Shown here: positions 1,521-33,749 of the stretch, one piece after another
Numbering within the stretch: the first letter of the stretch is position 1
Layout: every line of letters begins with the position of its first letter
Source of the DNA: an uncultured Gammaproteobacteria bacterium
GTDB lineage: Bacteria > Patescibacteriota > Patescibacteriia > Magasanikbacterales > UBA922
Direction: 5' to 3'
Assembly: GCA_964412535.1 (NCBI GenBank)
Contig: CAYPPF010000006.1
Location: forward strand, 1 to 37,358
Length of the DNA: 37,358 bases
Translations under genes and position numbers: made by a program
Notes under the pieces: generated by a model
The model's input: only the letters and a program-made list of their open reading frames with translations
Told to the model about the DNA's origin: nothing
The model's database searches: none

Positions 1521-2944
1521 ATATCTTTTTGAATAAACTTAGTACTAGCCAAAGCTATACCCAAGGGCATCCACATTACACCATGAAAATATGAGGTATT
1601 GAAAAGCTGGAACACGACTGCCCCTAACGCAGTCAATAGCATCATTTGATAAAATAGTTTAGTGTCTCCTTCAGACCTCTTCTGTGCACTGTATAGGTGA
1701 GAAAAAATCACAATCAAGAAAACAATAAACAAGAGTGATCCAACTAATCCTTCTTCCAAAACAAGCTTTTGCAATAATCCATGGGCGTCTAGTGGTTCAC
1801 CATACTCCAACACATGCACAAAAGTGTCTCCTAGAACGCGTACATACATTCCTGGACCGTACCCCCACAAAGGAGAACGCCCCACATAGTATGCCACAGT
1901 CTTTGTAGTCTCTAGCCTAGACTGAGTAGAACTAGCAACAGTAGAAGATCCTAGAAAACTCACCATATATCCAAAAACCACTAAACTAACTACAGTAATA
2001 GATGTCAGCCATATCACCCTTCCTTTCATAAACTCCGCTATCTTCTTCCTGCCCAACAAAACCAATCCCACAACCAATTGTGCTGCAAGAGCAACCCAAG
2101 CTGCTCTTGAAAGAGTCAGTAGTGCAGAAGCAAACAAGATAACTGTTATCCAACAATATAACCGACTCATGTCTCCCTTCTTCTTAGAAACTAAGAAGAA
2201 ATACAAAGCAATTGGTATTATAGGAATAAGGGCTTCGGCTAATAGGTTGTGATTATATCCCAGGGGAGCAAATCCTCTAATACCATATGGTACCACTCTC
2301 CACCAAATCCCCTGCTCCACCACTAATAAAGATGAGAGACCAAAAAACGCTATAGCACCACCAACCCACAACCATACACGAAGTGCTTTCAACAAAATTT
2401 CTTTTTTGAAAGTAACTAAATAAGGAAAAAACAAATATGCTAAAAATACAAATACCATTGGACGCAATAGATACTTCAAGCTAGCGCCAAAATAATGTTG
2501 TTCATACACTCCTGACAAAGAAACAAAAGAAGAAATGATAAACAAGGAATATAGTAAAACAACCCACATCAATCCTTTCAGGTCTTTCTTTTCCACCCTC
2601 ACTATCCTGAATACCCATGCTAAAAACAAGCTAATCAAAATCACCACTGCAAACAAATCAACCAAAGGTGCGTTTATGTATGGTAAAACAGGATACTCTT
2701 TAGCCCAACTATATAAAGAAAAATTAATTTCCCATCCCAGGAAAAAAGACAGTCCAGCCAACACATACAAGCCCCAATCCAGATGCAACGCAAACACTAT
2801 TACCAATACAGCTAGAAAAGAAAGAAGTAAAAACCAAGGGACAAATATGTATGACAACACAAGTACTGTCCCAAATAACAAAATCCACCAAATAGAAAAG
2901 ATTGGTAAGCCAAAAAATACCTTTGTATCTCTAGTATTTTGCAT
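1517..2944 (-). CDS. O-antigen ligase/polymerase-like (Wzy_C-type) polytopic membrane protein
   Basis: 475-aa ORF with many hydrophobic segments and a large loop, typical of the O-antigen ligase family. It overlaps the downstream GT4 gene by 4 nt. Confidence 0.65.
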   Translation of the reverse strand: MQNTRDTKVFFGLPIFSIWWILLFGTVLVLSYIFVPWFLLLSFLAVLVIVFALHLDWGLYVLAGLSFFLGWEINFSLYSWAKEYPVLPYINAPLVDLFAVVILISLFLAWVFRIVRVEKKDLKGLMWVVLLYSLFIISSFVSLSGVYEQHYFGASLKYLLRPMVFVFLAYLFFPYLVTFKKEILLKALRVWLWVGGAIAFFGLSSLLVVEQGIWWRVVPYGIRGFAPLGYNHNLLAEALIPIIPIALYFFLVSKKKGDMSRLYCWITVILFASALLTLSRAAWVALAAQLVVGLVLLGRKKIAEFMKGRVIWLTSITVVSLVVFGYMVSFLGSSTVASSTQSRLETTKTVAYYVGRSPLWGYGPGMYVRVLGDTFVHVLEYGEPLDAHGLLQKLVLEEGLVGSLLFIVFLIVIFSHLYSAQKRSEGDTKLFYQMMLLTALGAVVFQLFNTSYFHGVMWMPLGIALASTKFIQKDI

Positions 2945-2959
2945 ATAATTTACTTATAT

Positions 2960-2987
2960 ATTATACCAAAAAACACCTTTTTTTCAA
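2960..2987 (-). promoter_or_regulatory. Sigma70-type promoter TTGAAA-16-TGgTATAAT for the ligase/GT operon
   Basis: Minus-sense agcTTGAAAaaaaggtgttttttggTATAATatataagtaaattatATG. The -10 ends about 15 nt before the ATG at 2944, so the leader is very short and has no SD. Confidence 0.5.
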
Positions 2988-3004
2988 GCTTTTGGCCTAA
3001 CACA

Positions 3005-3030
3005 AAAGCAGTTCTCTAGAGAACTGCTTT
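3005..3030. terminator. Perfect palindromic hairpin, terminator downstream of the sigma gene
   Basis: aaagcagttctctagagaactgcttt is a perfect palindrome. In minus sense it is followed by TTTTGTGTT. It lies between the sigma stop (3069) and the next promoter. Confidence 0.6.
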
Positions 3031-3068
3031 CGAGGACGCTCAAACCAGTGGCTTGAGCAAAGGAACAA

Positions 3069-4289
3069 CTAAACCTCACTTTCCAAAAGATCAGACACTA
3101 TCCTTGACCTCTGGGAAGGTGAAAGATGAATCATGCCAACCCGCAACTGCCTTACCAGCAACTTCTGCTGTACAGTCAATGACGGCTTGGCTGGTTTGGC
3201 CTGTAGCAAGGAAACTACTACCGGTTCCTCTACAACTGGAGTGATGGGTACTGGCTCCACCAGCCTGAGGACAGGCTGCTCCACAGGAGCAACAGGCGGA
3301 TTAAGCTTAACTTCAGGCGAAGATTGAACCACCTCAGGCTCTTCATCCTCTTCCAAAAACTCGGTAGAGTATGTATAACCTCCAGCAGACCAATCAATTA
3401 CCTCGCCTTCTGCCTTTTCCAAACTACCCAAGGCAAGATGCAATGTTTGCAAGGCTCTTTTTTCCAACTGGCGCACCCTCTCCTTGCTGATACCGAGCAT
3501 TTTGCCCAACTCCCGCAATGTGAGGTTCTTTGTAGGATTAAGATGACGCAAAGAAACTATCCTTGCCTCTCTCTCCTCGAGCAAATCAAGAGCGTTGGCA
3601 AGATTGAATTCGCGAATCCAAGCCTGTTCATGATCCATGAACTCGGTTTCCACCAGACTTGCACCATCAGTAGAGGTACTGAATACTTCATACAACATCT
3701 GAGAGCTCTCATCACCATGCTTCACAGGCGCATCCAAGGAAAAGTCTCTCCCGTTGATCCGCCTTTGCATTTCCCCAACATCTTCTTCAGTGCCGCCCAC
3801 ATAATCTGCGACCTTTTGCCTGTACTCTGCCTCGTTCTCCACACCCTGCATTATCTTAGCTCTTTTCTTTGAGCTTTGTAGGTTATTGAAGATCCTCCTT
3901 TGTAGCTGCGTAGTTCCGATCTTCACCAAGCTCCAGTTCTTCAGGATGTACTCCTGAATAAATGCCCGGATCCACCAGACAGCATAGGAAATGAGACGAA
4001 AGCCTTTGCTAGGGTTGAATGACTTTAATGCCCTCACCAGTCCAGCGTTCCCTTCCTGGATCAAATCAAGAAGTTGGAACCCATAATTACGGTACTCCAG
4101 GGCCACCTTTACAACAAACCGCAGATTTGCCTCAACCAGCTGATCAGCAAGCTTTTGCTCTTTGGTTTCGAAAAACAAACCAGCAATACGTACCTCCTCT
4201 TCTGGAGGCATCAACGGCTTTTTGCTTATCACCTCAAAATACGTGGCTGCACTCCCCCAAAAGAAAGAAGAAGCTTTTTCCCGACTCAT
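3069..4289 (-). CDS. RpoH-like (sigma-32 family) sigma-70 factor with a C-terminal extension of about 100 aa
   Basis: Start chosen at MSREKASS (ATG 4289), preceded by AAAGGAGGGGAAT. Region 2: DLIQEGNAGLVRALKSFNPSKGFRLISYAVWWIRAFIQEYI. RpoH-box-like VKIGTTQLQRRIFNNL. Region 4.2: LTLRELGKMLGISKERVRQLEKRAL. A Pro/Val/Glu-rich tail follows. Confidence 0.85.
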   Translation of the reverse strand: MSREKASSFFWGSAATYFEVISKKPLMPPEEEVRIAGLFFETKEQKLADQLVEANLRFVVKVALEYRNYGFQLLDLIQEGNAGLVRALKSFNPSKGFRLISYAVWWIRAFIQEYILKNWSLVKIGTTQLQRRIFNNLQSSKKRAKIMQGVENEAEYRQKVADYVGGTEEDVGEMQRRINGRDFSLDAPVKHGDESSQMLYEVFSTSTDGASLVETEFMDHEQAWIREFNLANALDLLEEREARIVSLRHLNPTKNLTLRELGKMLGISKERVRQLEKRALQTLHLALGSLEKAEGEVIDWSAGGYTYSTEFLEEDEEPEVVQSSPEVKLNPPVAPVEQPVLRLVEPVPITPVVEEPVVVSLLQAKPAKPSLTVQQKLLVRQLRVGMIHLSPSQRSRIVSDLLESEV

Positions 4290-4332
4290 ATTCCCCTCCT
4301 TTGTGGGTAGTAGTGAAATGTACGTGATGTAT

Positions 4333-4361
4333 ATTAAACCACACACACGCGACAAGGTCAA
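4333..4361 (-). promoter_or_regulatory. Sigma70-type promoter TTGACC-17-TGgTTTAAT upstream of the sigma gene
   Basis: Minus-sense tatTTGACCttgtcgcgtgtgtgtggTTTAATatacat. The -10 ends about 43 nt before the ATG at 4289. Confidence 0.5.
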
Positions 4362-4364
4362 TAT

Positions 4365-4389
4365 ACAAAAAATCCCTCTTAAAGGGATT
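4365..4389 (-). terminator. Rho-independent terminator candidate after the 849-aa lipoprotein gene
   Basis: Minus-sense AATCCCTttaagAGGGATT followed by TTTTTTG. Confidence 0.5.
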
Positions 4390-4551
4390 ACTTGTCCTCT
4401 CCTGCACACCATAAATGATGAGCATGAGAGATTCCCGCAGCATGTTGCCACACCGCGGGAAAGATATCATCTCAGGGTTGCTCCTTGCGCGAAGTCTCGC
4501 ACTCAAAGCTATACTGAAACGAAATTCATGATTGACAGGAAGGAATCCTGA

Positions 4552-7101
4552 CTAGCAGCCGTTGACTGCGTCCTCGGGACATGGGTCAGCGCCGTCTTCG
4601 ACCTTGTCACCGTCGGTATCGGTACCTGGTGCGAACCACCAGTTGATACCGCTCATGCCGTTGTCCTTGTCGCCCACGGAAACGGCTTGGAAGGTGTTGA
4701 CACCATCGAAGTATGAATATGAGACGGTTCCGACCGTCCCACAGCCATCAGGGGGCTCGAAACATGAAGCCATATACACACCCGAAGGCTCGGCTTCGAT
4801 ATTCACCTTGCATTCGGTGATCAGGCCGCTGGCAACGGTACTATAGTTGAATACGACCGGTCCGTCGAACGGAGGGAGAAGTGTGTCCTTAACTCCCCAG
4901 GGCAAGGGCACTACATTCTGCCCCTTGCATTCAACCCAAAGCTTGAGCTCGGTGGTGCCACCTGGTACAGCCGCGGGAACGGTAACGTAGGTCAGATCGA
5001 ACTGCCCGATTTCAGGCGGGAGCACGCAGGTGCCGGTAGCGTCGCAAGCCTCGCCGTCCGCACAATCACCACATGAACCATTGCAACCATCATCGCCACA
5101 GGACTTACCATCGCAATCGGGAACGCAAGGTGCTTCGCATGCACCGTTAACACAGGTTTCACCCTGTGCACAATCTGCGTCGTCCATGCAGTCGGGACAG
5201 TTGTCCTGTCCCAGGCAGTCTGCGTCGTCGCAATCCACATCGCTGTCGCCATCGTTGTCCAGGCCGTCGCTGCACATGGATTCCGGGTTGCAGAAAGGTG
5301 ATCCGGCACAGCCGTCGTCATCGCAATCGGTAAGTCCATCCTGGTCGTTGTCAAGACCATCGCTGCAGTTGTCACCCTCCCCTTCGGGGCTGGGCTCGCA
5401 GACACCGGCGTTACAGGCCTCACCCATCTGGCAGTCGCCACATGAGCCGTTACAGCCATCATCGCCACAGGACTTGCCCACACAGTCGGGGACACACTGG
5501 ATAACGCAGAGGAAATCGATGCAATCGGCACCGGGAAGGCAATTGCCACACAGACCACCGCAACCGTCGTCGCCACACTGTTTGCCGTTGCAATCAGGAA
5601 CGCAGGGGTTACACATGGGGTCGTCGACACAAGAAGCGTCATCGCAGTCAACCTCACCGTTGCCGTTGTTGTCGATGCCGTCCGCGCAGTAGTCCGTGTT
5701 CTGCGGGTCCTTACACCCACTGGCCTCGGAGGTCTTGTCGCCATCCGAGCAAAACCACTCCTGGAACGGACCACACTCGATGAGCAATTCCCAGACGCCG
5801 AAACCGTTGCCTTCATCGAGGCACTCCCAGTATCCCAGGTTATCACTATCCTGAGGCTTGCGACAAGCAGGTCCGATGCTGTTACACCAGTCTGCTTCGC
5901 AGGCGCCGGCCACGCACTTGCCATCAGTACAGTCGGTACCGTCGGCTTCGTCGTCGTATACGCATTGGCCGGTCTGGAAGTCGCACCAGTCAGTGGTGCA
6001 TTCGTTGGCGTCATCACAATCGAGGAGTTGACCGGTACATTGGCCATTGACGCAGGTGTCGCCGTCGGTACAGAGATCCGTGTCATCGCACACCACATTG
6101 TCGAGCGGTGCGTTCTGACAGCCATCGGCCGGCGCACAGGTGTCTTCAGTACACTCGTTGGAGTCATCACAATCAAGTACTCCGTCCGAAGTGCAGGTCC
6201 CATCGGTACAAACATCACCGGTAGTGCAGGCATCTGCGTCGTCACAGACCGTTCCCTCCATCATGGCAGGATCGTTGACACAACCGGCTGCCGGATCGCA
6301 CGAATCCTCGGTACACTGGTTTGCGTCATCGCACTCGACCGGAGGACCCACGCAGTTGCCCTGTCCATCGCACTGGTCATCCATGGTACAGGGGTTGGCG
6401 TCGTCGCAGACCGTTCCTTCGAGAGCCATGCTGTAGATGCACTCTCCTACGGGACTGCACGAATCGGTGGTGCAGGGGTCGCTGTCGTCGCATTCGGCAT
6501 TCTCTTCGCAGGCCTGCGGGGGCACGCACTTGGCCCAATCCGGGTAAATACCGGAAATCTCGCAGGTTGCCTGCTCATCATCACAGGCCATGACCGTCGC
6601 GTACAGCGTGCATTCTCCCGTCTCTTCGGAACAGTCATAGGGGAGACAGGCCCACTTGCTGTCGTAGGGCACACCGTCGAGAGTCGCATCCCCACACCAG
6701 GTGGTATAGGGGGGTCCGCAGTTGCCATCGCCGTTGGAGTCCAGATCCGCTTCCTTCAACTCCACTTCCCCTTCCAGGGCGTGATACGAGGTAACATACC
6801 CCGTCTGATCCGGAAGCGCCACGCAACCGTTTGGGGTACAAACCCCGTCGCACCGGAAAGTGGTGCCGTCCTCTACGCGCTTGGCATACCAAACACTGTC
6901 CTTGGACATGAGGCACTTGTAGTCGCCCTTGTCCAGGACAACACTGCCCTGATCCTTGGCCTTCTGGTGCATTTCGGCCTTCTTGGCCTCGGGCACCTTG
7001 GAGATTTCCACTTCGGACTTTTTGGAGCTCTCCACTGCTCCGCAAGCCACCATAATTACGACCACCAGGGTCGCCACAGTGTACAACATTGCCTTTTTCA
7101 T
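4552..7101 (-). CDS. Very large secreted cysteine-rich repeat lipoprotein (849 aa)
   Basis: Start chosen at MKKAMLYTVATLVVVIMVAC (lipobox MVAC), preceded by GGAGGAacca. Contains many CDDxNxCTxDxC repeats, three CVPDCxGKxCGDDGCxGxCGxC units, CxDGxDNDxDGxxDCDDxxC units and a C-terminal TDTDGDKVEDGADPCP (thrombospondin type 3-like) motif. GC-rich codons. Confidence 0.8.
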   Translation of the reverse strand: MKKAMLYTVATLVVVIMVACGAVESSKKSEVEISKVPEAKKAEMHQKAKDQGSVVLDKGDYKCLMSKDSVWYAKRVEDGTTFRCDGVCTPNGCVALPDQTGYVTSYHALEGEVELKEADLDSNGDGNCGPPYTTWCGDATLDGVPYDSKWACLPYDCSEETGECTLYATVMACDDEQATCEISGIYPDWAKCVPPQACEENAECDDSDPCTTDSCSPVGECIYSMALEGTVCDDANPCTMDDQCDGQGNCVGPPVECDDANQCTEDSCDPAAGCVNDPAMMEGTVCDDADACTTGDVCTDGTCTSDGVLDCDDSNECTEDTCAPADGCQNAPLDNVVCDDTDLCTDGDTCVNGQCTGQLLDCDDANECTTDWCDFQTGQCVYDDEADGTDCTDGKCVAGACEADWCNSIGPACRKPQDSDNLGYWECLDEGNGFGVWELLIECGPFQEWFCSDGDKTSEASGCKDPQNTDYCADGIDNNGNGEVDCDDASCVDDPMCNPCVPDCNGKQCGDDGCGGLCGNCLPGADCIDFLCVIQCVPDCVGKSCGDDGCNGSCGDCQMGEACNAGVCEPSPEGEGDNCSDGLDNDQDGLTDCDDDGCAGSPFCNPESMCSDGLDNDGDSDVDCDDADCLGQDNCPDCMDDADCAQGETCVNGACEAPCVPDCDGKSCGDDGCNGSCGDCADGEACDATGTCVLPPEIGQFDLTYVTVPAAVPGGTTELKLWVECKGQNVVPLPWGVKDTLLPPFDGPVVFNYSTVASGLITECKVNIEAEPSGVYMASCFEPPDGCGTVGTVSYSYFDGVNTFQAVSVGDKDNGMSGINWWFAPGTDTDGDKVEDGADPCPEDAVNGC

Positions 7102-7266
7102 TGGTTCCTCCATGTTAAAGGCAGATTCAAAAAAGATGTGCTGCTAAACTTCAGCAGCTAGTTTCCTATCAATCAAATGTAACGATCGTGGGAAAAACAG
7201 ATTCCCAAATTGTATTTCTCAAGCGCATTGAGGAATATAATCTAGAAAATTGTACTTGTGTGTCCC

Positions 7267-7304
7267 TACCCGCACCCTGGACACGAAGTCGCAGGGTGCG
7301 GGTA
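7267..7304 (-). terminator. Strong GC-rich hairpin downstream of the 616-aa lipoprotein gene (no clear U-tract)
   Basis: 13-bp stem ACCCGCACCCTG.../...CAGGGTGCGGGT about 50 nt after the stop at 7355. Confidence 0.35.
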
Positions 7305-7354
7305 TAGGACACTGGAAGGAGGAACAGGCCCAGAAGAAAGGACCCTCGGGAAAA

Positions 7355-9205
7355 TCAAGGTTGTTTGCAAACCAGGTTGACACAGACCCACTCGGTGATG
7401 AGTCCGCAGACTTCAGTGACGACCCATACGCCACCCTGACATTCTGCCACAGTTTGCAGAGAAAGATCTCCGAAGGTCTTGCAGGCCTTCTCATCTTCCT
7501 CGCACTCTTGTGGTTCAACCAGAACAGGGGTACACTCTCCGACTACTTGCCCATTCTCCAGAACGGGCAGGCACTCGAAGTTGTCCGGGCAGTTGAACTC
7601 TTGGTTCTCACACTGCTCGGTCTGGACGTTGCAGAAGTCCACAGTGCACGGATCATCGTCTGAGCAGTCCTCAGGGCAGTTTGCCCCGATATCAACACAA
7701 TCTCCGGAAAACGCGTCGCACACCTGTCCCTGGTTGCAAGACAAGTTCGTGAAGACACACATGCCTTGGTCGCACATCTCCACGGTGCAGGGATTACCAT
7801 CTTCGCAGTCGGCCATGCCTTCGCAACCTGCAACAACGCATTGCGCATTCTGGCACATGGTGCCACCGACACAAGGTAAGCCCTGAGCCACGCACTTACC
7901 GCCATCGCAGTAGTCGAACGTGCAGTCGTTCTCGTCGTCACAGTCGACTGCTGTGAGACACCCCTGTGCTTCGCAATTTCCAGTGTTGGCATTGCAGAAA
8001 GTCCCTTCCCCGCAGGGTTTGGGATCGTGTACGCACTGCTCGGTCTGGGGATCGCAATAGTCCTTGGTGCACGGATCGTCGTCTGTGCAATTTTCCGGAC
8101 AGTTAGTGCCCAGCTTGACGCAATCGCCATCCATATCGCACACTTCGCCGTCATCGCATTCCTTGAGTTGGAATACGCACTGTCCTGCATCGCAGAAATC
8201 CTGCGTACACAGAACATTGTCGTCACAGTCCAGTGCGGACTGACAGACCGGTGAAGGCATACATGCTCCATCCTGACAGAACGTTCCGTTCCCGCATGAC
8301 ACGGGCTCGTACACGCACTTGAAAGTCTGTGGGTCACACGAGTCGTCAGTGCAGGGGTTGGAATCGTCGCATCCGTCGGTGCAATCTGTTGGTGCGTTGG
8401 TGCAAAACCAATCAAAGGGTGGAGCAGCGTCCACCACCACACAAAAATCAGTTGTGGTGGGGTCACCATCATCGCAATCCTTGGACTGGAACACGCACTG
8501 ACCAGTGTCAAGATCACACTGTCCAGGCATGCATGGGTTAGGACCCTCGCATGCCGCATGCGACTCGCACTTGAACACACACTCTGGCTCGCCTTCGAGC
8601 GCCATGCACTTGTGATACTTCGGACAAACGAACTTCTCGTGTTCGCAACTACCCGTCTGCACATTGCAGAAGTCCACAGTGCACGGATCGTCGTCTGCGC
8701 AGTTGCCACAATCCGTACTGGATATGTGGTGGCAATTGCCAGTGACTGATTCGCAGGTGTCCACGGTCTCCTCGTCCTCGTCGTCGCAATTGACGTCGAA
8801 GAATGAAAGCATTCCTGTGATCGGATCGCACACCGTAACAATGCACATATCCGAGATAAACGGGTCAGGCGGGCATTCCTTTACCGGAAACTTACATTCG
8901 CCGAGAACGCCCACGCACTCATACCCATCAGGGCACTTGTCTATGGAAACGCATTCGCCGTTCACGCACACCCCGATCTTACACACATCCTTGGTGTCAC
9001 ACTCAGCTGCTGATTTACAGCCTTCTTCTTCGACCGGTTCGGTCACGTCAGGCTTGGGCTCGACTTTCGGGCAATCATTACCCTCACAAACTACGGTTTC
9101 TTCACCCTTGTTCTGGGCGTTGACGTAGTCTGCCGTGCCACATCCGTTAATGAAAACTACGGTCGCAAGGACCAGGATCGAACTGATGCTCGAAAGCTTC
9201 TTCAT
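7355..9205 (-). CDS. Secreted cysteine-rich repeat lipoprotein (616 aa), paralogous in repeat type to 4552..7101
   Basis: Start chosen at MKKLSSISSILVLATVVFINGC (lipobox INGC), preceded by GGGGAGGAGtacc. Repeated DDDPCT(V/K)D(F/Y)C(N/D)xQTxxCxH units alternate with CxxGxxCxxGxC units. Confidence 0.8.
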   Translation of the reverse strand: MKKLSSISSILVLATVVFINGCGTADYVNAQNKGEETVVCEGNDCPKVEPKPDVTEPVEEEGCKSAAECDTKDVCKIGVCVNGECVSIDKCPDGYECVGVLGECKFPVKECPPDPFISDMCIVTVCDPITGMLSFFDVNCDDEDEETVDTCESVTGNCHHISSTDCGNCADDDPCTVDFCNVQTGSCEHEKFVCPKYHKCMALEGEPECVFKCESHAACEGPNPCMPGQCDLDTGQCVFQSKDCDDGDPTTTDFCVVVDAAPPFDWFCTNAPTDCTDGCDDSNPCTDDSCDPQTFKCVYEPVSCGNGTFCQDGACMPSPVCQSALDCDDNVLCTQDFCDAGQCVFQLKECDDGEVCDMDGDCVKLGTNCPENCTDDDPCTKDYCDPQTEQCVHDPKPCGEGTFCNANTGNCEAQGCLTAVDCDDENDCTFDYCDGGKCVAQGLPCVGGTMCQNAQCVVAGCEGMADCEDGNPCTVEMCDQGMCVFTNLSCNQGQVCDAFSGDCVDIGANCPEDCSDDDPCTVDFCNVQTEQCENQEFNCPDNFECLPVLENGQVVGECTPVLVEPQECEEDEKACKTFGDLSLQTVAECQGGVWVVTEVCGLITEWVCVNLVCKQP

Positions 9206-9384
9206 GGTACTCCTCCCCATTGGGTTCATTTCCTCATTTCTCCAAAACCACCTTACTACACTCAACTGCATATAAAAAACAATCAAATGCAGTAAGGCAG
9301 TTATATAGAGAATTCCTTCCGTTGTAATGAGCGGATTAAATGCTTAATCCCTCTTTACTACTAGCAAAGAAAGATAGTTGCACT

Positions 9385-9428
9385 CCCGTCCGCAGCATCA
9401 ATGATAAACACTGAATACTGCGGACAGG
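9385..9428 (-). terminator. Hairpin downstream of the glycine-zipper lipoprotein gene (terminator candidate, weak U-tract)
   Basis: Minus-sense CCTGTCCGCAG-(22 nt)-CTGCGGACGGG. The 11-bp stem includes one G.U pair that forms only on the minus-sense RNA. Confidence 0.35.
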
Positions 9429-9455
9429 AAAAGATATTCTAGGTAGGTTGCTGTC

Positions 9456-10523
9456 CTAGTTGACAGCTTTCTTGATGGCCCAGATGCCGAGTCCGAGAAC
9501 AGCACCGCCGGCACCACCAATCGCAGCACCAACACCGCATCCGGAGGCCTCATAATCGCCATCGCTGTCAATACCACCTGATCTTGCACCCCAGCCTATA
9601 CCACAGCCACCACCAGCTCCAATGCCGGCGCCGATTGCAGTATATGCCAGCCATTCGACCGGGCTCCCGTCTTCCTCCTTGAAATCCGGAGAGAAGGTGG
9701 GGTTGGTATCGACGTACTGATACTGGTATGCGTCGACGTACTCCGCACGGAAAGCGCGTCCGAGCAATTGCTCTTCCGCGGCTTTGCTAGTGGCGTTGTA
9801 GTCGGTTGATGATCCAGCATGGTGCTCCCTACGCTGTTTGCGCGTCTGACGCAAGGCCGCAGACTCTGCAGCATCCGTCTGACGGAGCATAACTCGCTCA
9901 CCAGAGGTGACGCTTTCGTCTTTAGGAGCCATACTTTCCCGGGTAGCCAGTCCGTTGCCAGCACTTGCGATCCAGGATCGCGGCACACAACGAACCGTCG
10001 CAGTGCCCACAATATCTGTACTGGGATCGTGGCACCAGGCACCATCTGCAGCGTCTACTGCCTTAGTGTTGGTGGCTCTCGTTTCATCCAGCTCATCCTG
10101 GCCAGCCCTACGTTTGCCGTGTTCTTTTGCGGTCCCATTGACCATGGGGATTGTCCCCGTCTCGCACTTCTTTGCACCCGTGGCATCTTCACCGTCCTTA
10201 CCTTGCCACACGGGCTTAGGCAAACTTCCATCCTGCACCACGCAGGTGACGAGACATGGTTCTGGACCACAGGTGTTTTTCGGTGCAGTCGCACTGTTGG
10301 CTCTTGCCTGCAGACCAGCACCGACACCCGGGGAATTGGAGCCTGTCTGGCCCTGGGTGTTTGTTGCAGCGGAATTGCTGGCTCCTCCAGAAGATCCGGA
10401 GCTGGAAGTACCTCCACCACCCTGAGCCAAATCTGGATCAGGCAGTGCGGTTTGTGGGCCACCTGTGGCACAACTGGTTAACAGAAAAACTCCGATAATC
10501 AAACCTACGATCTTTGCCTTCAT
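9456..10523 (-). CDS. Lipoprotein with a C-terminal glycine-zipper (SlyB/Pcp 17-kDa-antigen-like) segment
   Basis: Start chosen at MKAKIVGLIIGVFLLTSC (lipobox LTSC), preceded by GGGAGGAGaatgtc. A Gly/Ser-rich linker follows. The C-terminus is AIGAGIGAGGGCGIGWG...GCGVGAAIGGAGGAVLGLGIWAIKK. Confidence 0.7.
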   Translation of the reverse strand: MKAKIVGLIIGVFLLTSCATGGPQTALPDPDLAQGGGGTSSSGSSGGASNSAATNTQGQTGSNSPGVGAGLQARANSATAPKNTCGPEPCLVTCVVQDGSLPKPVWQGKDGEDATGAKKCETGTIPMVNGTAKEHGKRRAGQDELDETRATNTKAVDAADGAWCHDPSTDIVGTATVRCVPRSWIASAGNGLATRESMAPKDESVTSGERVMLRQTDAAESAALRQTRKQRREHHAGSSTDYNATSKAAEEQLLGRAFRAEYVDAYQYQYVDTNPTFSPDFKEEDGSPVEWLAYTAIGAGIGAGGGCGIGWGARSGGIDSDGDYEASGCGVGAAIGGAGGAVLGLGIWAIKKAVN

Positions 10524-10804
10524 GACATTCTCCTCCCTGCCCATTACGGGCGATTCATTGCACATTTAGGAATCAGTTACTGCATAAAACAAAGCAAATA
10601 CCATGCTTTACACAGTAACTGAGTTTATTCTTACAAAATACGGAGGAAAAACTAGAAAAACCTACCTAGTTGTAAAGAACCGAGGCTTAGGTATTCCTAA
10701 GCTTTAATTCATACATTTTCTCCATATTCAACATTGTACTGAAAGGAAATATTAGTCAAAAACCAACAATTTCCCATAGTGTTCAGCATGTTAAATAACG
10801 ATAT

Positions 10805-10833
10805 AATATACCATATTTTGAAGGTTTTGTCAA
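10805..10833 (-). promoter_or_regulatory. Consensus sigma70 promoter TTGACA-17-TGgTATATT, giving a leader of about 275 nt for the 355-aa lipoprotein gene
   Basis: Minus-sense aaacTTGACAaaaccttcaaaatatggTATATTatat. The next start codon with an SD is at 10523. Confidence 0.55.
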
Positions 10834-10898
10834 GTTTAAAAAGGGATAAAAACACAAAATTGGCTAAAATAAGCCAATTTTTACTGTTTTTCTACTAC

Positions 10899-10926
10899 AA
10901 AAGGCCGGTTTCCCGGCCTTTTGTTG
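10899..10926 (-). terminator. Rho-independent terminator of the giant-protein operon
   Basis: Minus-sense AAAAGGCCGGgaaaCCGGCCTTTTGTAG, immediately after the stop at 10931. Confidence 0.7.
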
Positions 10927-10930
10927 AATT

Positions 10931-13900
10931 TTACTCTACTTTAGCAGCTCCCCCAGCATTTGATTGATCTTTTTCTGCTTCTTCTTTCTCTTTCTTGGAA
11001 AAATGCCTGATTGCTGCATCTTGAAAACTCTTTTCTAGATTGATTTGGAGACCTATTTTAAACTCAATATACTGTTTTTCAGGAGAAAGAGTACTTCTAC
11101 CTGATGGCACAAATTGAACACCTAAAATTCCCGCATCAAACTTGTCTAAAGAACTTCTCACTTTTGCCCACCCTTTTTCATCTTTTCTATGCTCTTCTAA
11201 TCCTGACGAAAAATTACGCAATGCACCCACTTGTCTTTCTAACAAATCTTTCCTAGTTTCCTTAAACCATTTTCTAGCCCATTCCAGTTGAGGAGCATTC
11301 ACCTTCTTGCTCTTGGCCGAACCCCTAACTAAGGATTCTAATTCACCAGGAGTAGTTAATAGCTTCTTTCCATGGCGCAAGAATGAAGCATAGTTTTCAG
11401 CCTCTTGTTTATCTGCCTTACTCCACTCTGAGTCATCTATTAAATTTTCTACTCTGTCTATCCCCTCTCCATATCCATCTGACTCTTCTTTTGGCTCTTC
11501 AGGAAGATGATGGTGTTTTACTTTTTCCCACCTATCCTCCAATGACATTGGCGTTTCGTGCGGTTCAATTTCACTAGTATCAATTTCTGGTTGATTAAAT
11601 TCTTGATCATCTACTGATTGTGTTCCACCTTTCTTTTTCTCTTCTTTTTTCTTTCGCTTCTTACGAGGTGACTTAGTTTTCTTTTTCTTTTTTTCTATCT
11701 TCTTTTTCTCTTCTTTCTCTGCCTCTGCTTTGACCTTGGCTTCTGCCTCTGCCTTCATTTTGGCTTTAACTTTCCCAAGCTTTTCTAAATCTTCTATTCC
11801 ACCATCTACTTCCATTCCTGTTCCCTCTATTCCTCCCCTGTCTACAAACAAGTATGGATCCTCATCTTCGCCCACATCTACATCTTCTGGATGATATTCG
11901 TGACCTGTCTTCTGTTTTTCTTTTCCTTCATGATCAAACTTCTTTTCAAAACTAGCTCCCCATATTACAACTGCAGCTATGCCAGCAGCCCAAAGTACTT
12001 TCTTCAATCTACCACCCCATTTCTTTGCTTTTTTAGTACCTAATTTTTTCTTTAACTCTGCCCTAGCCCTATCCAGTTTAACGCCTATCTTTTCTTTTTC
12101 AGGCTCTACTGATTCTGGATAGTGTCCTTCTACCGATGAAGGTGGAGGTCCATCTATTGATTCTAGTTTGACTCTAGTTACGAATTCCTTAAGAGCCTCA
12201 TTAAAATCTGTATTTCTTTCATATACATGTCTTCCATCATTAGCCTGACTGGCAAACTCACCCGTCTCCTTGTTGTATTCGCCATGCATTATATATTCAA
12301 TGGCAGGTGCACCATCAGGAGTATCCGAAGGCATTATCAGTGTATATTTTATTTCAAATTCCTCAGTATCTGGATTACTGACAAAGTTAAGTTCTGGCCC
12401 TTCACAATCTTCTATCCCCACACCAATCTCTTCCCTGTCAAAAGCATGAAAAACCTTTGCTTCACTATCATATGAACCCAATTCTCCTATTCTTTTTGCT
12501 ATTAGTTCTCCTTCCTTCCATTTACCTTCTTGTGGAAGCTCTCCTGAAACCTCCTTGATACCTTTACCGTCTAACACAACACCCTTACCAGTAATATATC
12601 TTACTAGACCGGTTAATTTAGTATCAGAATCCACCATAAAATCTGTAGCCCTTGCCAAAACAATTATGTCATCCCTATACTCCCCTTCCAAGATGCTACC
12701 ATCAGGGAATATCTTTTTACCATTAATAAACTTCCCATCTACAAAGTTACCTTCAAACTCTGTTGCACCAGGAAACTTTTGTTTACCTTGACCATGTAAT
12801 ACCCCCTCTTTCCATTTACCCTCCCTAGTACCATTACTATCTTCCACTTTTCCTTCTGATAACATCCCCTCCACAAATATACCTTCAGCTGTAAAGGGAG
12901 GATTTACAGAATTGTGTTTTCCTTCTCCCTCAAGAACTCCATCTTTCCAAACACCTTCAAAATATGAACCATCTGGAAATTCTAGTTTTCCCTGCCCCTT
13001 ACTTGGTATTTGTTCTCCAGCTCTTTCAACAGCCTTTCCTGTATACGTACCTCCAGCAAAATCTATACCCCCTTGTTCTCTTGCAGTTTCTCTTGCTTTT
13101 TTGTCAGCAGGCTCCTTTACCTCAAGCTTTCTTTCTATTGGGCTTGATTCAGGCGGAGGAGGAGGTCCAACAGGAGGAGAAGTTGGTGGTTCTACTTCAG
13201 TGCCAGGAACAGGAGGGGGCTCGACCACTGTACCTTCAGTAGCGGCACGTGTACTTGCCCTTTCTGTACTTTCAATCTGTATAACTTCTAGACTAATTTT
13301 CCCCTGCAACTCTTTAAGAGGATTTACTACTTCTTCTCTTATTCTAGAAACAATCCATTGCAACCTAGGCACCAAAGTCTTTGCTCTTTTTTTAGAATCT
13401 GAATACCAGGTAATGTAATTTAGGGTTTCCAACATTGCTTCAGTAATCAAGACATCTTTTTCTGAAATAGAAGATACTTGTCTGGCCAAAGTTTCATAAT
13501 CAGGATGACTAGCATCATCTAACTTTTGGACTCCCTTAAACAACTCGTCTTCTCTAGGAAAAACTTCTTTGTTAATTATCTCACTAAAATCACCCAAAGA
13601 AGTCTCGAAGTCTTCTTTCCTTTTTTCTAAATAAGATTTTGCCCCACCATCAGCATTCCATATCAATGTCTTCCACATCTGTTCTATCTTTTCACTTGTA
13701 AGCTCATCTTCTACTTCTACTAAATTAAACCCATCTAATTTTTCATACTCTTCAGGCCCTACAAACTCCTCTAATTCTTTTTCTATTGGATCAGGGTCTG
13801 AAACAGTAGAAGCATCTGGACTGAGTACACCTCCAAAATGTGTAATCTCTGATTCCGTACTTCTAACAATTGTTTCGTAATCGGCAACAATATCTCTTAT

Positions 13901-16900
13901 CCTACCCATACCAACCTTAAATAATCTTGACAAGCCCAGCTTTGCTTTCTTTCTTGAACTAGCAATATTAGGTGTATTATTTAACATGCCCTCTAAAAAA
14001 TCAGTCAAATCCACTTCCTGAGCTTCAATATAGCCTCGGCGTTCTTGAAAAACTCTCGCTCTGTTCGCCCCCGCCTTGTCATTAATTTCCTGGATATTAG
14101 TAGTCAGACGTCCTTTGAGAGGAAGCACTCTTTCACCATGTTTTCTCTTTAGCTCTCCCACAAACTGAGCAAAAATCTTTTTCTTGTCTCGTAAATAAAA
14201 TCTGACTACCGCACTTGATGCCTCTACTAACCTATCCCAAATCTCATTCAATTTCTCAATTGTAAGCTGTGAAAGTAAATCTTCTAAATTTCCATTAGAC
14301 TCTAACTCTTCATACTCAGGCTCAGTGGGTTCTTCTGGTTCAGATTCTTCACCAGATGAATCTAAGGTTGGTGGAATTACTTCAAGAGACTTGTGGTACG
14401 GGTTATACCCTGCTGGTTCACCACCTTCTGCCACTGAAGCAGGAGTTTCCTCTTCAGGAACATCCGGGACAGATTCTTTATCTGACTCAGTGAGCAGTCC
14501 TAACAAGTATAAATTACTTTCAGTCTTTTTATTAACCCACCTGACCATTTCCCATCCCATTATTAATAGATGTTCAAAGCCATCTTTCACCTCTTCTCTT
14601 GAAACAGCTATCTCCTGAATATTATTTAATCTTCCAGTTATATAATCAACTCTTTCTTGTTCTTCATTTATTTCTGCCTCATAATCTTTGTATATTCCAC
14701 CATCTAATTCATTTTTTTTCATATATTCCAACAACTGTTCCCTTGATGTGCTACTTTTTTCTTCTGCATCTCTCATTCCTTCGACAAACTTCTTGAAATA
14801 TTTTTTCAGACCTAATAAATGAAGTTTAGCTGCTATTCCTGATGCCTCCCTTAATCTGCCCCAAATTTCATCCACCTTCTCACCTGTAAGTTGGGCTAAT
14901 AGACCTTTCAACCCTTCACCAGATTTTAACTCCACATACCCTGATTCATCTGGCTCAGGTACCTCCACAGAAGGAGGAATTGTTTCTGCTGGCTCGACCA
15001 CTTCATCTCCAGATAGTACATCTGCTTCATCTTCACCATCATCTGACACTTCCCATTCAGAATCACCGAAACTATCAACAAACTCCTCAGGTGATTCTCC
15101 CAAAGCCAAAGCAGCCTCTGTTGGTAGTACCACCTCGGCAACACCAGCAAGGTCTTCAGTGCGTGCTTTTAGGATTTCCCACTCATCATTCTTATTTTCC
15201 TCTTCCATTACTTCCTTATATATCTCTATAAGTTTATCTGCAAAACCATCTGGCAATTTATCTTCTAAACCAGGTTTTTGTGATAAGGCACCTCTTAGCG
15301 CAGTGGCAGCCCCCTCTAGTGCAAATATATTTATATTTCCATCTTCTAATCTTTCCCAATTGCTCTTAAACCGATCCATGTGTAAACCATATAAATATTC
15401 ATCAGGACCTTCTATGTCTCTTGGCTCTGGTGCAGGTGGTTCATCATCAGGTGACTCTGTCCCCTCTACTAGCTGCCCTCCTGCCATTTTTCCATCACCA
15501 AGATCAATTGCTCTATGACGTGGTGGACCTGTTCTTGGCTTTACATCTAAAGGAATTGTTGGGACTGTTGGATCCTCATCATCAAAATCATCAAAGGTCT
15601 CTTCATCAAACCCAGAAACAGCCTCTTCAAAGATCCTGTCTGCGTCTTCTGTCGGTGTTAAGTCAATATCTGAATCATCTTCTTCATCCCCCAACAACTC
15701 TTCTGCATCTTCCACAGCTTTCCTTAAACGATCCGGGTCACTAGCTTGCTCAGATCTAAGACGACGATATAGTGCAACTAACTCGGGTACTTGATTTTCA
15801 ACTTCGTGCTGGAGGTTGACCTTGTTCAGCTCATCATCAATCTCATCCTGAGTATAGCCCCCTACTAATTTAAATTCTTCTTTGACTAGTTCGATAAACC
15901 TTTCTGTTACCTGTCTTAACAGACCAGACCAACCATCTATATATTCTTCTACTTTGGAAAGTTCTACTACCTCGTCTAGTCCTTTCTCCACCATGTCCCT
16001 TCTCAAAACAGGTACATTCAAAGGTTCATTATTTTCAACAAAAATATCAACCATCTCATACACCCTGTCTAGCATTCTCCTAACTTGTTCTTTTTTATTT
16101 CTTACCACCTCATCTTCCACCTCAACTGGTTCTTCTTCTGGCACTGCTTCCGGTTCTGGATCAGGAGGACTAGACATATCTTCAGCTTGTTGTAATAAAT
16201 CTTCAAATACTTTCTCATCAATACCCCTTTGTACGGCGTATGTGACTAAATCTTGCATTCTAGACTTTACTAAACTAGGATTTCTAAAACCAAACTCTTT
16301 TATAATATCCTCAGCAGCTGTCAAAAAGACAGTCTCACTAAGATCCAAATCTGTATCCACTCTTTCATTAGCATATCTCAAAGCTTCATCAGCTGATTCA
16401 ATATAGCCTATACCTAAATTCTCACTAAAAGCTCTTTGAATGAGTGCTTGCTCAGGCCAATCCATTAATATGCCTTTGCCAGCATAATAATCTTCAATTC
16501 CAGTAACTTTTTCATAATGGAACAAACCCCCTCTAAACAACTTATCTCTTTCTCCCTCTAAGTATTCTTTGCTAATCTCTACATCCAATGAAAGATCATT
16601 TATTATTTGTTCTAATGCAGGCAGATGTGCATCTTTCTCTCCATTCCAAAATCGAGCATTAAGTATAGAATTGCTATGCCTATTTTTGATAAACTCTCCA
16701 ACTTGCTTTCTAGCCTCTGGATGTTCTTGTAATTTTTCAAGTGTTTCCCTTATATCAGCAAATCCTTCTAAAATAGTTTTTTCATCAGTATCACGTAATT
16801 TTCTTGAACCAAATTTCTCTTCTAATTCTTTTAGCATTCCTTTTACTTCTTCACTTAACTCCACTTCCTCTTCTGGAGGAGAGACAACTGGTTCTGACTC

Positions 16901-26715: not shown

Positions 26716-27112
26716 GGGGATGACAGGATTCGATGGACGGATCCGTTATCTATCATATGCATGTCGAGGTTGTACCCTATCCTCGTTAATACTAGGATAC
26801 ATGAGATAAGTGTAAACTTAACCTCAAGAGTGAAGAATGCTTTAGCTAACGCTTTTAGTGTTCCTTCATTCGCATCTGCTGTCGCTTAATTGCGACTGCC
26901 ATCGCTACCATGATACTCAATACTGGATCAGCGGTGTAAATCCATTGAGTGTAGGGCTAGATCACCGCCTTGTAATCTAGTCTGAAATCAAACAAGGCTA
27001 GCTATATACTTTTTTGTCGCTTTCAAGGTATTTAGCAAGAAAACAAAGCGTCTAAGCATGTAGATTATGGAGGTAGCCCGCTCAGACCCGGGTTCAATTC
27101 CCGGCATCTCCA
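26716..27112 (+). ncRNA. ssrA: tmRNA (SsrA)
   Basis: The 5' end GGGGATGACAGGATTCGATGGACGG pairs with the 3' end CATCTCC, followed by discriminator A. T-arm is CCGGG-TTCAATT-CCCGG. A candidate tag ORF at about 26839-26889 (ALANAFSVPSFASAVA*) ends in the usual hydrophobic Ala-rich tail. CCA is not encoded. Confidence 0.9.
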
Positions 27113-27119
27113 CAAAATT

Positions 27120-29142: not shown

Positions 29143-29216
29143 GGACCGGTAGTTCAATTGGTTAGAGCACCGCCCTGTCACGGCGGAAGTTGCGAGTTCG
29201 AGTCTCGTCCGGTCCG
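29143..29216 (+). tRNA. tRNA-Asp (anticodon GTC)
   Basis: Manual cloverleaf: acceptor GGACCGG/CCGGTCC, D-arm GTTC..GAGC, anticodon stem CCGCC/GGCGG with loop CTGTCAC, T-arm GCGAG-TTCGAGT-CTCGT, discriminator G. CCA is not encoded. Confidence 0.95.
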
Positions 29217-29226
29217 CATTCAAAAT

Positions 29227-33100: not shown

Positions 33101-33731
33101 TAAAGGTGCTGCTAGTGATCGTAGTAGTGCCTCCTGTCCCATTTGCCGCATACAAAACCCAGACACCATAGCTAGTGTTATTAGAAACTGTAACGTTATC
33201 TAAAGTTATCTGGGCAGTAAAAATATTATTAACACCTGACACATTACCGGAAAAAGTACCTGTATTTACCACTGCTGTCGCACCTCTATGCAAAGACAGT
33301 CCATCATCTCCATTATTACTCCCAATTATTGAATTATATGTAGCGGTTGAAGTGGCAGCCTGTTTAAACCCATCATTATCCGCACCATATGATTCACAAT
33401 CATTTACAATTATACCACTACTTAGTCCAGCCACATCAAAATTATTTTCATTACCATTCCTAAGAACAATATCTTGAACAGTTATATAATTCTTAGTATT
33501 AATCAAAATGATATTATCCCTTTGATTTGCCTCAATATTACCACCTGTTGGATCACCACCAATATTAACATACAAAAGATTGGTATCCCAATCCCATTCA
33601 CTAGCCCCCAAAGTCCCAAAATTCCCGTCATTCTCTGTCAATGCTGTTGTACTATTAAGCACATAGTCTGTTTCTGTTGTAAGGGCGATCTTGTAAATAT
33701 TACCAGCATGCTGCGTCCAACTTCCACTCAA
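30165..33731 (-). CDS. Large surface protein with right-handed parallel beta-helix repeats, FN3-like domains and a C-terminal domain; downstream portion of an interrupted gene
   Basis: 1188-aa ORF. The track start is a TTG, and the frame stays open upstream to 33776. It has beta-helix-type repeats rich in N, G, T and S, FN3-like segments (TLYTFQVKTKDNATTSNES, YSFRVKARNGDNTETSYSS) and no signal peptide of its own. Confidence 0.75.
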   Translation of the reverse strand: MSGSWTQHAGNIYKIALTTETDYVLNSTTALTENDGNFGTLGASEWDWDTNLLYVNIGGDPTGGNIEANQRDNIILINTKNYITVQDIVLRNGNENNFDVAGLSSGIIVNDCESYGADNDGFKQAATSTATYNSIIGSNNGDDGLSLHRGATAVVNTGTFSGNVSGVNNIFTAQITLDNVTVSNNTSYGVWVLYAANGTGGTTTITSSTFTSNASNIQFENDQSGSITNTTITGGTTGIYTDSTGTIALSNVTSTNQTGDCVYVDGGSITTADSTSLGVCGDSAIDIDGASTVTVTETTISSTVGHAIDTASGTTLTIDNLVLFSIPENKFAIAVRDGVTSTIRNSVLYNNDRGLFIQSTTTLYNTILFDHEEAIWFSGAGNTSELTMSHNNMYSNTTDFQGGDGSEANLDGIAQDPLFMSTSTNNFTLQASSPCIDRGTSNTSTPTTDYLGKQRYDQPSVADGGAGTLTYYDIGAYENVLAIDPVLQSTSHASEVTWYNDTTPDMSLTSDDSSTTHYHYLVNQTASPTAAQVAAGTEDADGTFSVAAETIDDSGTWYVHIISQNADNENSTNFDTYTIKYDGDAPTGAAISFGTITTSSIALSTSAASDDNAGLHATPYYFLETVASSTDGWQASTDWTVSSLSVNTLYTFQVKTKDNATTSNESSLTTATSKYTLATAPSSVITTGGSGQITVAWSSSSTSHYIDNMTDDVNSGWTSDSTYTFTGLNCSRSYSFRVKARNGDNTETSYSSTVSGQTNACVFGGSGGSSSSVPATPAEDTTDEDTTQESSADALATSEVSLPPGTSESISIGGSTHTITVGTPAEDGTVTITIESDPVTVTLAPGEEELVDTDSDGEYDLLVKLDSSDASVVDLTVVAVGELEFSIAQGLSEVSSQAVLLYMNSTGVTEMAISNENDFTNVSYVDYTTTSDWTLTEGNGVKTVYVKFRSTDGGTTNTNDTITLTGQSFDQEIVVEEVVEEEVECDLTKGGAYKHLGSPAVYYITSDCTKRAFKRSDVFFTYFDGWSDVVVITETEIDAITNDTLGFMPWGPKYDPKYGALVKIVTDPKVYLLLGTEKYWITSEVVFETLNYAWNWIEDIAEGLLDKYTLGSEISYTDHHPNYTLIKYEDNPKVYRLEPDPEDTELQVKRYIPDEPTFESLNFRWDRIVTVGEAEEYTDGELLTELAT

Positions 33732-33749
33732 GTTGTCAGAACCATAATG

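Follow-up and report, generated by a model that had tools for sequence, protein, structure and literature searches.

Genomic islands and horizontal gene transfer (HGT) are documented in Patescibacteria, the candidate phyla radiation (CPR), where they account for up to 13% of genome length and involve mostly exchange within the phylum, with some donors from other phyla; the transferred genes include regulators, a lysR case among them (PMC12455944). Here we describe a block of four GC-rich genes, encoding an RpoH/sigma-32-like alternative sigma factor and three putative lipoproteins, on a 37,358-nt stretch of DNA (the whole of contig CAYPPF010000006.1; hereafter the window), most of which carries low-GC genes pointing to Candidatus Magasanikbacteria. 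We refer to the window genes outside the block, and outside a second GC-rich island at the contig end, as the backbone. We consider it probable that the block consists of genes acquired horizontally into a Candidatus Magasanikbacteria chromosome; as part of this explanation, the sigma factor and the two Cys-rich lipoproteins would derive from a GC-rich, Myxococcales-like ('Deltaproteobacteria') pool. The components of the block are as follows.

3069-10523, minus strand for all open reading frames (ORFs): four-gene block, recognized by the jump in GC content and in GC at third codon positions (GC3) and by Shine-Dalgarno sites (SDs)
3069-4289, minus strand: RpoH/sigma-32-like alternative sigma factor, 406 aa, identified with Pfam and NCBIfam
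4552-7101, minus strand: Cys849, putative lipoprotein of 849 aa, PF00526 Dicty_CTDC at 53.1 bits (threshold 27)
7355-9205, minus strand: Cys616, putative lipoprotein of 616 aa, PF00526 at 54.8 bits (threshold 27)
9456-10523, minus strand: Lipo355, putative ORFan lipoprotein of 355 aa, signal peptide ..LLTSC

Composition and translation signals of the block

In 500-nt windows, GC content was 0.46-0.60 within 3001-10500 and 0.34-0.43 in the flanks on either side. The per-gene GC3 values agreed, bearing out the compositional difference that a first-pass annotation of the same DNA had claimed. GC and GC3 were, respectively, 0.47 and 0.51 for the sigma gene, 0.58 and 0.66 for Cys849, 0.54 and 0.62 for Cys616, and 0.57 and 0.53 for Lipo355, versus 0.32-0.43 and 0.24-0.39 for the backbone genes, with no overlap between the GC3 ranges of the two groups. 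The accompanying statement that codons ending in G or C dominate holds for Cys849 and Cys616 but only marginally for the sigma and Lipo355 genes. At four-fold degenerate sites, GC reached 0.41-0.65 in the block genes compared with 0.24 in the backbone; part of the GC excess of the Cys/Gly/Asp-rich proteins resides in codon positions 1 and 2. The relative synonymous codon usage of Cys849 is correlated with that of Myxococcales rpoH genes (r = 0.82) and anticorrelated with that of the backbone (r = -0.57); for the sigma gene, the correlation with backbone codon usage is r = +0.44. Because the spacers have a GC content of only 0.34-0.45, the GC excess is restricted to the four ORFs.

As a general principle, unstructured leaders initiate translation independently of SDs, and structured mRNAs keep them. 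All block genes have a strong SD before the ATG (starts at 4289, 7101, 9205 and 10523), and the four SD-ATG contexts quoted in the first-pass annotation were found verbatim in the sequence.

Start at 4289, minus strand: SD of the sigma gene, AAAGGAGGGG, duplex energy -10.5 kcal/mol
Start at 7101, minus strand: SD of Cys849, GGAGGA
Start at 9205, minus strand: SD of Cys616, GGGGAGGAG
Start at 10523, minus strand: SD of Lipo355, GGGAGGAG

Duplexes with the anti-SD core had energies of -9.3 to -10.5 kcal/mol for the 4 block genes, against a range of +3.6 to -4.0 kcal/mol in the 15 backbone genes examined, so that strong SDs were scored in 4/4 and 0/15 genes, respectively (Fisher p = 2.6e-4), confirming by duplex energy that the low-GC backbone genes are devoid of such sites, as had been noted by inspection. 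None of the 32 genes in the syntenic loci of two Magasanikbacteria relatives (median GC3 0.29-0.31) has a strong SD either; the SD-less, low-GC state thus appears to be typical of the lineage at this locus, with the block as the exception. The four SDs are near-perfect despite the drift of the synonymous sites, which argues that they are maintained by selection. Predicted folds of the start regions are also more stable in the block genes (-10.3 versus -6.1 kcal/mol in the backbone, p = 0.03; n = 4 versus 15 genes).

Host backbone and integrity of the junctions

The backbone genes encode, among others, GT4, Wzy, Wzz, an AI-2E transporter, SmpB, tmRNA, IF3, L35, L20 and tRNA-Asp. For IF3 of the backbone, identities of 63-71% to Candidatus Magasanikbacteria proteins were obtained, and all organism-named IF3 matches come from Magasanikbacteria, with the exception of one labelled 'Patescibacteria group bacterium'. 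The gene order giant protein/Wzz/three small genes/SmpB/IF3/L35/L20 is common to the window and two Magasanikbacteria contigs from metagenome-assembled genomes (MAGs). By protein similarity and gene order, the backbone is therefore assigned to Candidatus Magasanikbacteria (CPR/Patescibacteria).

Both edges of the block recur in separately assembled contigs. JGI contig 3300009374 Ga0118720_1069040 is 100% identical to window positions 2621-4381, running from the sigma gene into the Wzy gene, and ENA ERZ23499038 scaffold_33856, found in 2 samples, is 100% identical to positions 9324-12137, running from Lipo355 into a gene for a 2408-aa protein; the same Lipo355 gene was called in this independent ENA contig. 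A chimeric assembly is thus effectively excluded, given that two false joins would need to have been repeated independently.

By eye, a TATAAT-like hexamer is located 8-18 nt before the ATG of several native genes (e.g. 2944, 22225 and 28477), which suggests leaderless mRNAs or mRNAs with very short leaders.

Sigma factor

The sigma factor contains the domains PF04542 Sigma70_r2 (8.4e-17) and PF04545 Sigma70_r4 (3.9e-15) and passes the NCBIfam sigma-32 subfamily model NF005143 (263.2 bits, cut-off 241), scoring below the cut-offs for the TIGR02392 rpoH_proteo equivalog (267.8 versus 323.1 bits) and for NF005693 (221.9 versus 315). The RpoH box, located between regions 2.4 and 3.1, has the consensus Q(R/K)(K/R)LFFNLR; the RpoH-box-like segment QLQRRIFNNLQ of the window protein, which reads TTQLQRRIFNNLQSSKKR, is partly conserved, and the closest homologues read QLQRRLFNHLQSSQKR. 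Beyond a core of ~295 aa, the protein extends through an acidic/Pro-rich linker into a short, basic C-terminal helix. For this tail, approximately residues 296-406 (~110 aa), no homologue was found, the best matches covering 66-70% of the query.

Besides an identical protein from the same population, the best matches are sigma-32 proteins of 291-293 aa with 55-58% identity, and the nearest relatives in GTDB species genomes are 51-62% identical. The MAG contigs that carry the nearest relatives are labelled 'uncultured Myxococcales', 'Deltaproteobacteria' and 'Pseudomonadota' and have a uniform GC content of 0.59-0.70, and no Patescibacteria name was found among the top 120 matches. A neighbour-joining (NJ) tree places the sigma factor, on a long branch, as sister to a 64-member clade that includes these nearest relatives. 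Myxococcota have RpoH-like sigma factors, and both the homologues in Myxococcales/Deltaproteobacteria MAGs and the tree bear out the Myxococcota-like affinity proposed from the sequence at first pass; the parallel hint at Bdellovibrionota received no support from any tool. Within 10 kb of the Myxococcales RpoH loci, we did not find related lipoproteins.

Putative lipoproteins

Cys849 is composed of 11.4% Cys and 14.7% Asp, with 4 CxxDxxxCTxDxC repeats, 3 CxPDCxGKxCGDDGCxGxCGxC repeats and a non-repetitive C-terminal domain, and Cys616 contains 14.1% Cys and 6 repeats of the CxxDxxxCTxDxC type. PF00526 matches 4 stretches in each of the two proteins. Homologues of Cys849 show 30-50% identity across 20-69% of the query, and repeat-level homologues of the Cys-rich proteins number in the thousands, the named ones belonging to Deltaproteobacteria, Myxococcales, Pseudomonadota and Binatia; there is no Patescibacteria name among the top 120 Cys849 matches. 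The Cys-rich repeat type and its Myxococcota-like affinity, both suspected earlier, are thus corroborated by the PF00526 matches and the named homologues. Origin of the pair by duplication in situ was considered and rejected, as each protein has database relatives closer to it than the other copy.

By pattern check, the N-termini of Cys849 (..IMVAC), Cys616 (..FINGC) and Lipo355 (..LLTSC) each consist of a signal peptide followed by Cys. Of the three lipobox signal peptides claimed previously, only LLTSC fits the strict lipobox [LVI][ASTVI][GAS]C, Cys849 and Cys616 each deviating at one position. Neither lgt nor lspA is present in the window; an LspA (Peptidase_A8) gene occurs in an unrelated CPR contig (L039).

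Lipo355 is rich in Gly (15%) and Ala (14%) and has a GxxxG-rich hydrophobic C-terminus. It has no match in Pfam, NCBIfam, PHROG, PADLOC or PDB and no relatives in our JGI metagenome and IMG/VR scans. The label of glycine-zipper lipoprotein given to it at first is not upheld, there being no Pfam (E < 0.01) or NCBIfam match and the GxxxG runs being recognized by eye only.

Spacers, promoters and leaders

The spacers of the block measure 262, 253, 250 and 407 nt (GC 0.34-0.45), so that the AT-rich spacers of about 250 bp reported previously are real, with the 407-nt one in addition.

4290-4551, minus strand: spacer upstream of the sigma gene, 262 nt, GC 0.45
4389-4371, minus strand: terminator-like hairpin of the gene upstream of the sigma gene, AATCCCTTTAAGAGGGATT followed by a T-run
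within 4290-4551, minus strand: weak promoter-like site TTGACC-17-TTTAAT
7102-7354, minus strand: spacer upstream of Cys849, 253 nt, GC 0.45; a GC-rich hairpin follows Cys616
9206-9455, minus strand: spacer upstream of Cys616, 250 nt, GC 0.40, with the terminator-like hairpin of Lipo355
10524-10833, minus strand: promoter and leader (~280 nt) of Lipo355, GC 0.34

A separate terminator-like hairpin follows each of the block genes. Scanning the region for sigma-70 promoters identified a near-consensus site only upstream of Lipo355, namely TTGACA-17-TATATT with an upstream TG (10833-10805), which matches 11/12 consensus positions. With 8 promoter-like sites in the region against 7.0 +/- 3.1 in shuffled sequences, there is no excess; the 'backbone-style promoters' previously attributed to the spacers are hence not confirmed beyond the one site before Lipo355. 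An RpoH-type -35/-10 pair was not found in any of the four spacers, the promoter consensus of this sigma clade not being established.

The leaders of the three lipoprotein genes are predicted to be structured. That of Cys849 (z = -3.7 versus shuffles) carries the 10-nt motif CATTTGATTG at -78. A perfect ~24-bp hairpin, ~55-110 nt upstream of the Cys616 ATG (window 9240-9300, minus strand; z = -4.9), includes the same motif at -84; CATTTGATTG is common to these two spacers only. The Lipo355 leader folds at -95.3 kcal/mol compared with -66 +/- 5 in shuffles (z = -5.5) and contains a 19-bp hairpin; in its 147-nt version (z = -5.6), the SD is sequestered in the predicted fold by an upstream UUUUCCUCC. 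Taken together, the structured leaders and the predicted pairing of the Lipo355 SD make translational control possible, and the Lipo355 leader may, judging from the modelled folds, function as a translational switch or an RNA thermometer. A riboswitch or other known RNA was also considered, for which there was no Rfam match in this leader or in the rest of the block.

Second GC-rich island and its relatives in other CPR contigs

The first-pass annotation was right that the block is a GC-rich, SD-led segment but overlooked both a second island in the same window and the recurrence of the pattern in other CPR genomes.

34558-37356, minus strand: second island, an ORF of at least 932 aa, GC 0.53, GC3 0.54, running off the contig end
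L033 8083-11398, L036 10001-12013 and L037 10001-12015: loci of a related cassette in CPR-type contigs
L030 3521-5100: island of 1.6 kb in Magasanikbacteria MAG GCA_964345045.1, GC 0.53-0.64 in a backbone of 0.31-0.40

The second-island ORF has no in-frame stop up to 37356. Its product, with no Pfam match, is predicted to carry winged-helix modules in tandem, joined by an acidic linker to a coiled coil at the C-terminus. In the AlphaFold2 (AF2) model of its N-domain (predicted local distance difference test, pLDDT, 81.5; predicted template modelling score, pTM, 0.76), repeated helix-helix-helix-strand-strand units can be discerned, which we read as the tandem winged-helix array; no PDB entry matched the whole N-domain at E < 0.06, the matches being confined to single winged-helix domains (SarS, HucR, TFIIE and ribosomal proteins). 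The family is rare, with 11 representative homologues among 1.84 billion proteins, of which one is named Patescibacteria. The 932-aa protein is the fused form of a two-gene cassette found in CPR-type contigs, the split version consisting of P0370 and P0373 in L033 and of P0382 and a 288-aa gene in L037. In L033, the cassette has a GC3 of 0.56-0.76, versus ~0.33-0.5 in the flanks, and SDs AAGGAG and AAAGGGGGG; the copy in L036 is likewise GC-richer and SD-led in a low-GC contig. No equivalent of the second island was found in the syntenic regions of the two Magasanikbacteria relatives.

The cassette adjoins ychF in L037 and L039. A further contig, L032 (Logan SRR22388050), encodes a YchF sharing 69-74% identity with the L037 and L039 proteins, and next to its ychF lies the gene for P0074 (635-2623), a 662-aa RpoH-like sigma factor with 45% identity to the window sigma. 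Between the C-terminal extension of P0074 and the winged-helix modules in the 932-aa protein there is a match at E = 1e-7; this fusion of the Rosetta-stone type suggests joint action of the sigma factor with the winged-helix protein. The two sigma factors do not cluster in the NJ tree. A tail motif common to the window sigma (HLSPSQRSRIVSDLL) and the 932-aa family (RFSPAMRRRMLEEL) was considered as well and stands as a visual lead only: hhalign pairs exactly these residues, but the BLAST and hhalign comparisons are non-significant (E = 0.14).

The L030 island lies between a giant protein gene and DUF5663/Wzz and encodes a 488-aa orphan protein with an SD of the GGAG type; as for Lipo355, a sigma-70-like promoter is located ~300 nt upstream of the gene. 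Across 89 genes from six CPR loci, genes with strong SDs showed a GC3 excess of +0.10 (Mann-Whitney p = 3e-4). The combination of GC-richness and an SD thus generally characterizes a minority class of genes in these genomes, and this class is most economically read as acquired genes. Given the recurrence of the cassette in CPR-type contigs, some of the gene traffic may take place within the CPR.

Other features of the backbone

Cys is absent from both native giant proteins (2408 and 1190 aa), in which Glu makes up 15-16%, and the gene for the 2408-aa protein includes an exact tandem duplication at 16848-17626 (2.0 copies of a 384-nt unit with 100% identity). Directly after smpB comes a tmRNA gene at 26716-27115 (tag peptide ATAIATMILNTGSAV), and a tRNA-Asp(GTC) gene is located at 29143-29217; neither lies at an island boundary. 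The gene for a beta-helix surface protein is split on the minus strand into ORFs of 136 aa (33924-34334) and 1188 aa (30165-33731) in the same frame. The gap (window 33725-33960) comprises ~190-230 nt of GC-richer sequence with five predicted hairpins (-112.8 kcal/mol, z = -9.2) and three in-frame stops, has no Rfam match and no second copy within the window, and may be a small intron, a ribozyme or an inserted element.

Origin of the block

The observed composition, the dichotomy in SD usage, the real junctions and the distribution of the homologues favour HGT as the source of the block. Genes would have entered from a Myxococcales-like pool, except that Lipo355, an ORFan, has no assigned source. 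Amelioration would be partial, most advanced in the sigma gene and least in Cys849, and this unevenness makes a single recent capture improbable; several acquisitions, or one old and much-remodelled acquisition, would be the simplest reading. The genes would now form separate transcription units with their own terminator-like hairpins and AT-richer spacers between them. The SDs would have been kept since the GC-richer, more structured 5' ends require SD-anti-SD pairing, whereas the native AT-rich genes would start from short, unstructured, SD-less leaders. The block would amount to an accessory cell-surface set of disulfide-rich, adhesin-like lipoproteins together with an extra stress-type sigma factor; this surface/adhesion function, like the direction and timing of the transfer, we infer. 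Of the horizontally acquired cell-surface module proposed at first pass, the block itself is real and foreign-looking, but its unity as one module is not supported, considering the heterogeneous codon usage, the separate hairpins and spacers, and the Myxococcales RpoH loci that are devoid of such lipoproteins.

Several observations weigh against this explanation. No close donor was identified, the best identity being 55-62% for the sigma factor and at the level of repeats only for the Cys proteins, and for this reason the donor lineage is deduced from those sampled relatives that are nearest. Long branches and a lack of support values make the NJ tree a crude one. Searches at the block for an integrase, a tRNA target, flanking direct repeats and viral matches all came back negative. 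The structure-based rationale for the retention of SDs stands on 4 versus 15 genes, and the compared loci of the relatives reach 10 kb to the left of IF3, ending within the giant gene, so that the site between the Wzy and giant genes lies outside them. Finally, GC-richness plus an SD is by itself no proof of a non-CPR origin, because all sightings of the second-island family are in CPR-type contexts, and in several CPR genomes its genes are likewise GC-rich with SDs.

Alternatively, the RpoH-like sigma could transcribe the three adjacent lipoprotein genes, and perhaps the 932-aa gene, as a functional regulon with a deliberate SD-led regime, an arrangement that is compatible with a foreign origin but that we regard as unlikely. 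The genes are adjacent and co-oriented, the Cys849 and Cys616 spacers have no good sigma-70 promoter and share CATTTGATTG at -78/-84, the three lipoprotein leaders are structured (z = -3.7 to -5.6), with the predicted pairing of the Lipo355 SD with UUUUCCUCC allowing for translational control, and the fusion in P0074 (E = 1e-7) links the two islands of the window. Yet an RpoH-type -35/-10 pair was not found in the spacers, Lipo355 is preceded by a near-consensus sigma-70 promoter, the terminator-like hairpins are separate for every gene, the block genes are unlike one another in codon usage, Myxococcales RpoH loci have no such lipoproteins nearby, and the shared 10-mer occurs in two sequences only. 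The earlier proposals that the adjacent sigma factor transcribes the block and that a 'deliberate' separate translation regime operates there accordingly find no support. That the genes are instead native and vertically inherited in the CPR, with GC-rich codons and SDs resulting from gene-specific selection (on amino-acid content, mRNA stability or expression level), is decidedly unlikely: GC at third and four-fold degenerate positions, which is independent of amino-acid content, is 0.41-0.66 versus 0.24 in the backbone, sigma-32 proteins of the Myxococcales type are nearer to the sigma factor than is any CPR protein, none of the top 120 Cys849 matches bears a Patescibacteria name, the window sigma and P0074 do not cluster, and the second island has no counterpart in the syntenic regions of the two relatives. 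Vertical inheritance would nonetheless fit the sightings of the 932-aa family, all in CPR-type contexts, with GC-rich and SD-led members in several CPR genomes, the location of another RpoH-like sigma next to a ychF gene whose product shares 69-74% identity with its counterparts in the cassette-bearing contigs L037/L039, and the share of the GC excess carried by codon positions 1 and 2 of the Cys/Gly/Asp-rich proteins.

The discreteness of the atypical segment and the occurrence of similar small GC-rich islands at different sites in other CPR genomes would also be expected if the block were cargo of an integrated mobile element, such as a prophage, an integrative and conjugative element, a transposon or a plasmid remnant. 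We consider this very improbable, since no integrase, transposase or relaxase domains were detected in the Pfam and NCBIfam scans, PHROG gave no phage-family match besides a generic sigma-factor match, there is no tRNA at the block edges (the only tRNA of the window being at 29143) and no flanking direct or inverted repeats around the block, and three of the block genes have no relatives in IMG/VR. Matches to defence systems are lacking as well: this candidate was considered, but the sole resemblance, to MzaA, is a generic one of the sigma regions. That assembly or binning erroneously fused a GC-rich piece from a different organism to a CPR contig is scarcely credible despite the abrupt change in composition and the termination of the contig inside the second GC-rich gene: both junctions are repeated base-for-base in other assemblies (window 2621-4381 and 9324-12137), the block genes are co-oriented with their neighbours, and the spacers are of intermediate GC.

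Implications

We know of no host of Magasanikbacteria, and the hosts and lifestyles of most CPR lineages are likewise unknown to us. Genes captured from outside the lineage are a rare sequence-only clue to the cell partners of the CPR, in this case pointing toward Myxococcales-like bacteria. It is conceivable, if rather a long shot, that both GC-rich islands represent a captured transcription system, the RpoH-like sigma with the winged-helix protein, plus a surface set that marks the partner of the bacterium, the Cys-rich lipoproteins having come from, and attaching to, a Myxococcota-like host. If so, this would provide a host prediction for Magasanikbacteria and define a new family of sigma-accessory proteins, and the SD-led structured leaders would place these genes under separate translational control, as a class of their own in a genome that otherwise lacks SDs. 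The rare tandem winged-helix family, free in some CPR-type contigs and fused to an RpoH-like sigma in one, may define a new transcription accessory. As a clean natural case of two initiation styles in one small genome, the locus could further be used for studying the expression of foreign genes in streamlined bacteria. Our literature coverage, which is incomplete, yielded no account of SD-less Patescibacteria or of a CPR RpoH homologue, a weak sign of novelty.

Comparison with known systems

The window sigma resembles the RpoH family in having the sigma-2 and sigma-4 domains, in passing the sigma-32 subfamily model and in its 55-58% identity to members of 291-293 aa. It differs from the family, whose members are of ~285-300 aa without extra domains, in its length of 406 aa and the homologue-less tail of ~110 aa, and from proteobacterial RpoH in falling below the equivalog cut-off and in its CPR genome setting. 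Cys849 and Cys616 have the same repeat types as the Myxococcales/Deltaproteobacteria 'cysteine-rich repeat protein' (the JGI name) with PF00526; the best-matching repeat proteins are 1000-1500 aa long, compared with 616-849 aa here, where the N-termini are of the lipoprotein type. Both proteins are rich in Cys, yet the giant surface proteins of the same CPR genome have none. The principle of SD-independent initiation would apply in the window as well, with AT-rich backbone leaders lacking SDs and GC-richer genes having SDs and stabler start folds; here, the two modes appear to coincide with native versus acquired genes in one small genome.

With the islands described in PMC12455944, the block shares the setting of an atypical segment in a streamlined CPR genome and a content of accessory genes most closely related to genes from other lineages than that of the host. 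It differs in that the apparent Myxococcales-like source is not among the donor phyla tabulated there, which include Desulfobacterota and Pseudomonadota, in that no mobility genes were found in the block, and in the all-or-none contrast in SDs with an SD-less backbone, which is not mentioned in the passages considered (PMC12455944). HGT islands in Patescibacteria being already documented, the basic picture is unchanged, and the block is a good example of horizontal gene capture and no new kind of system. It is distinct from the documented islands by the Myxococcales-like affinity of its genes, the extra sigma factor of the sigma-32 type with a novel tail, and the clean contrast between SD-led and SD-less genes.

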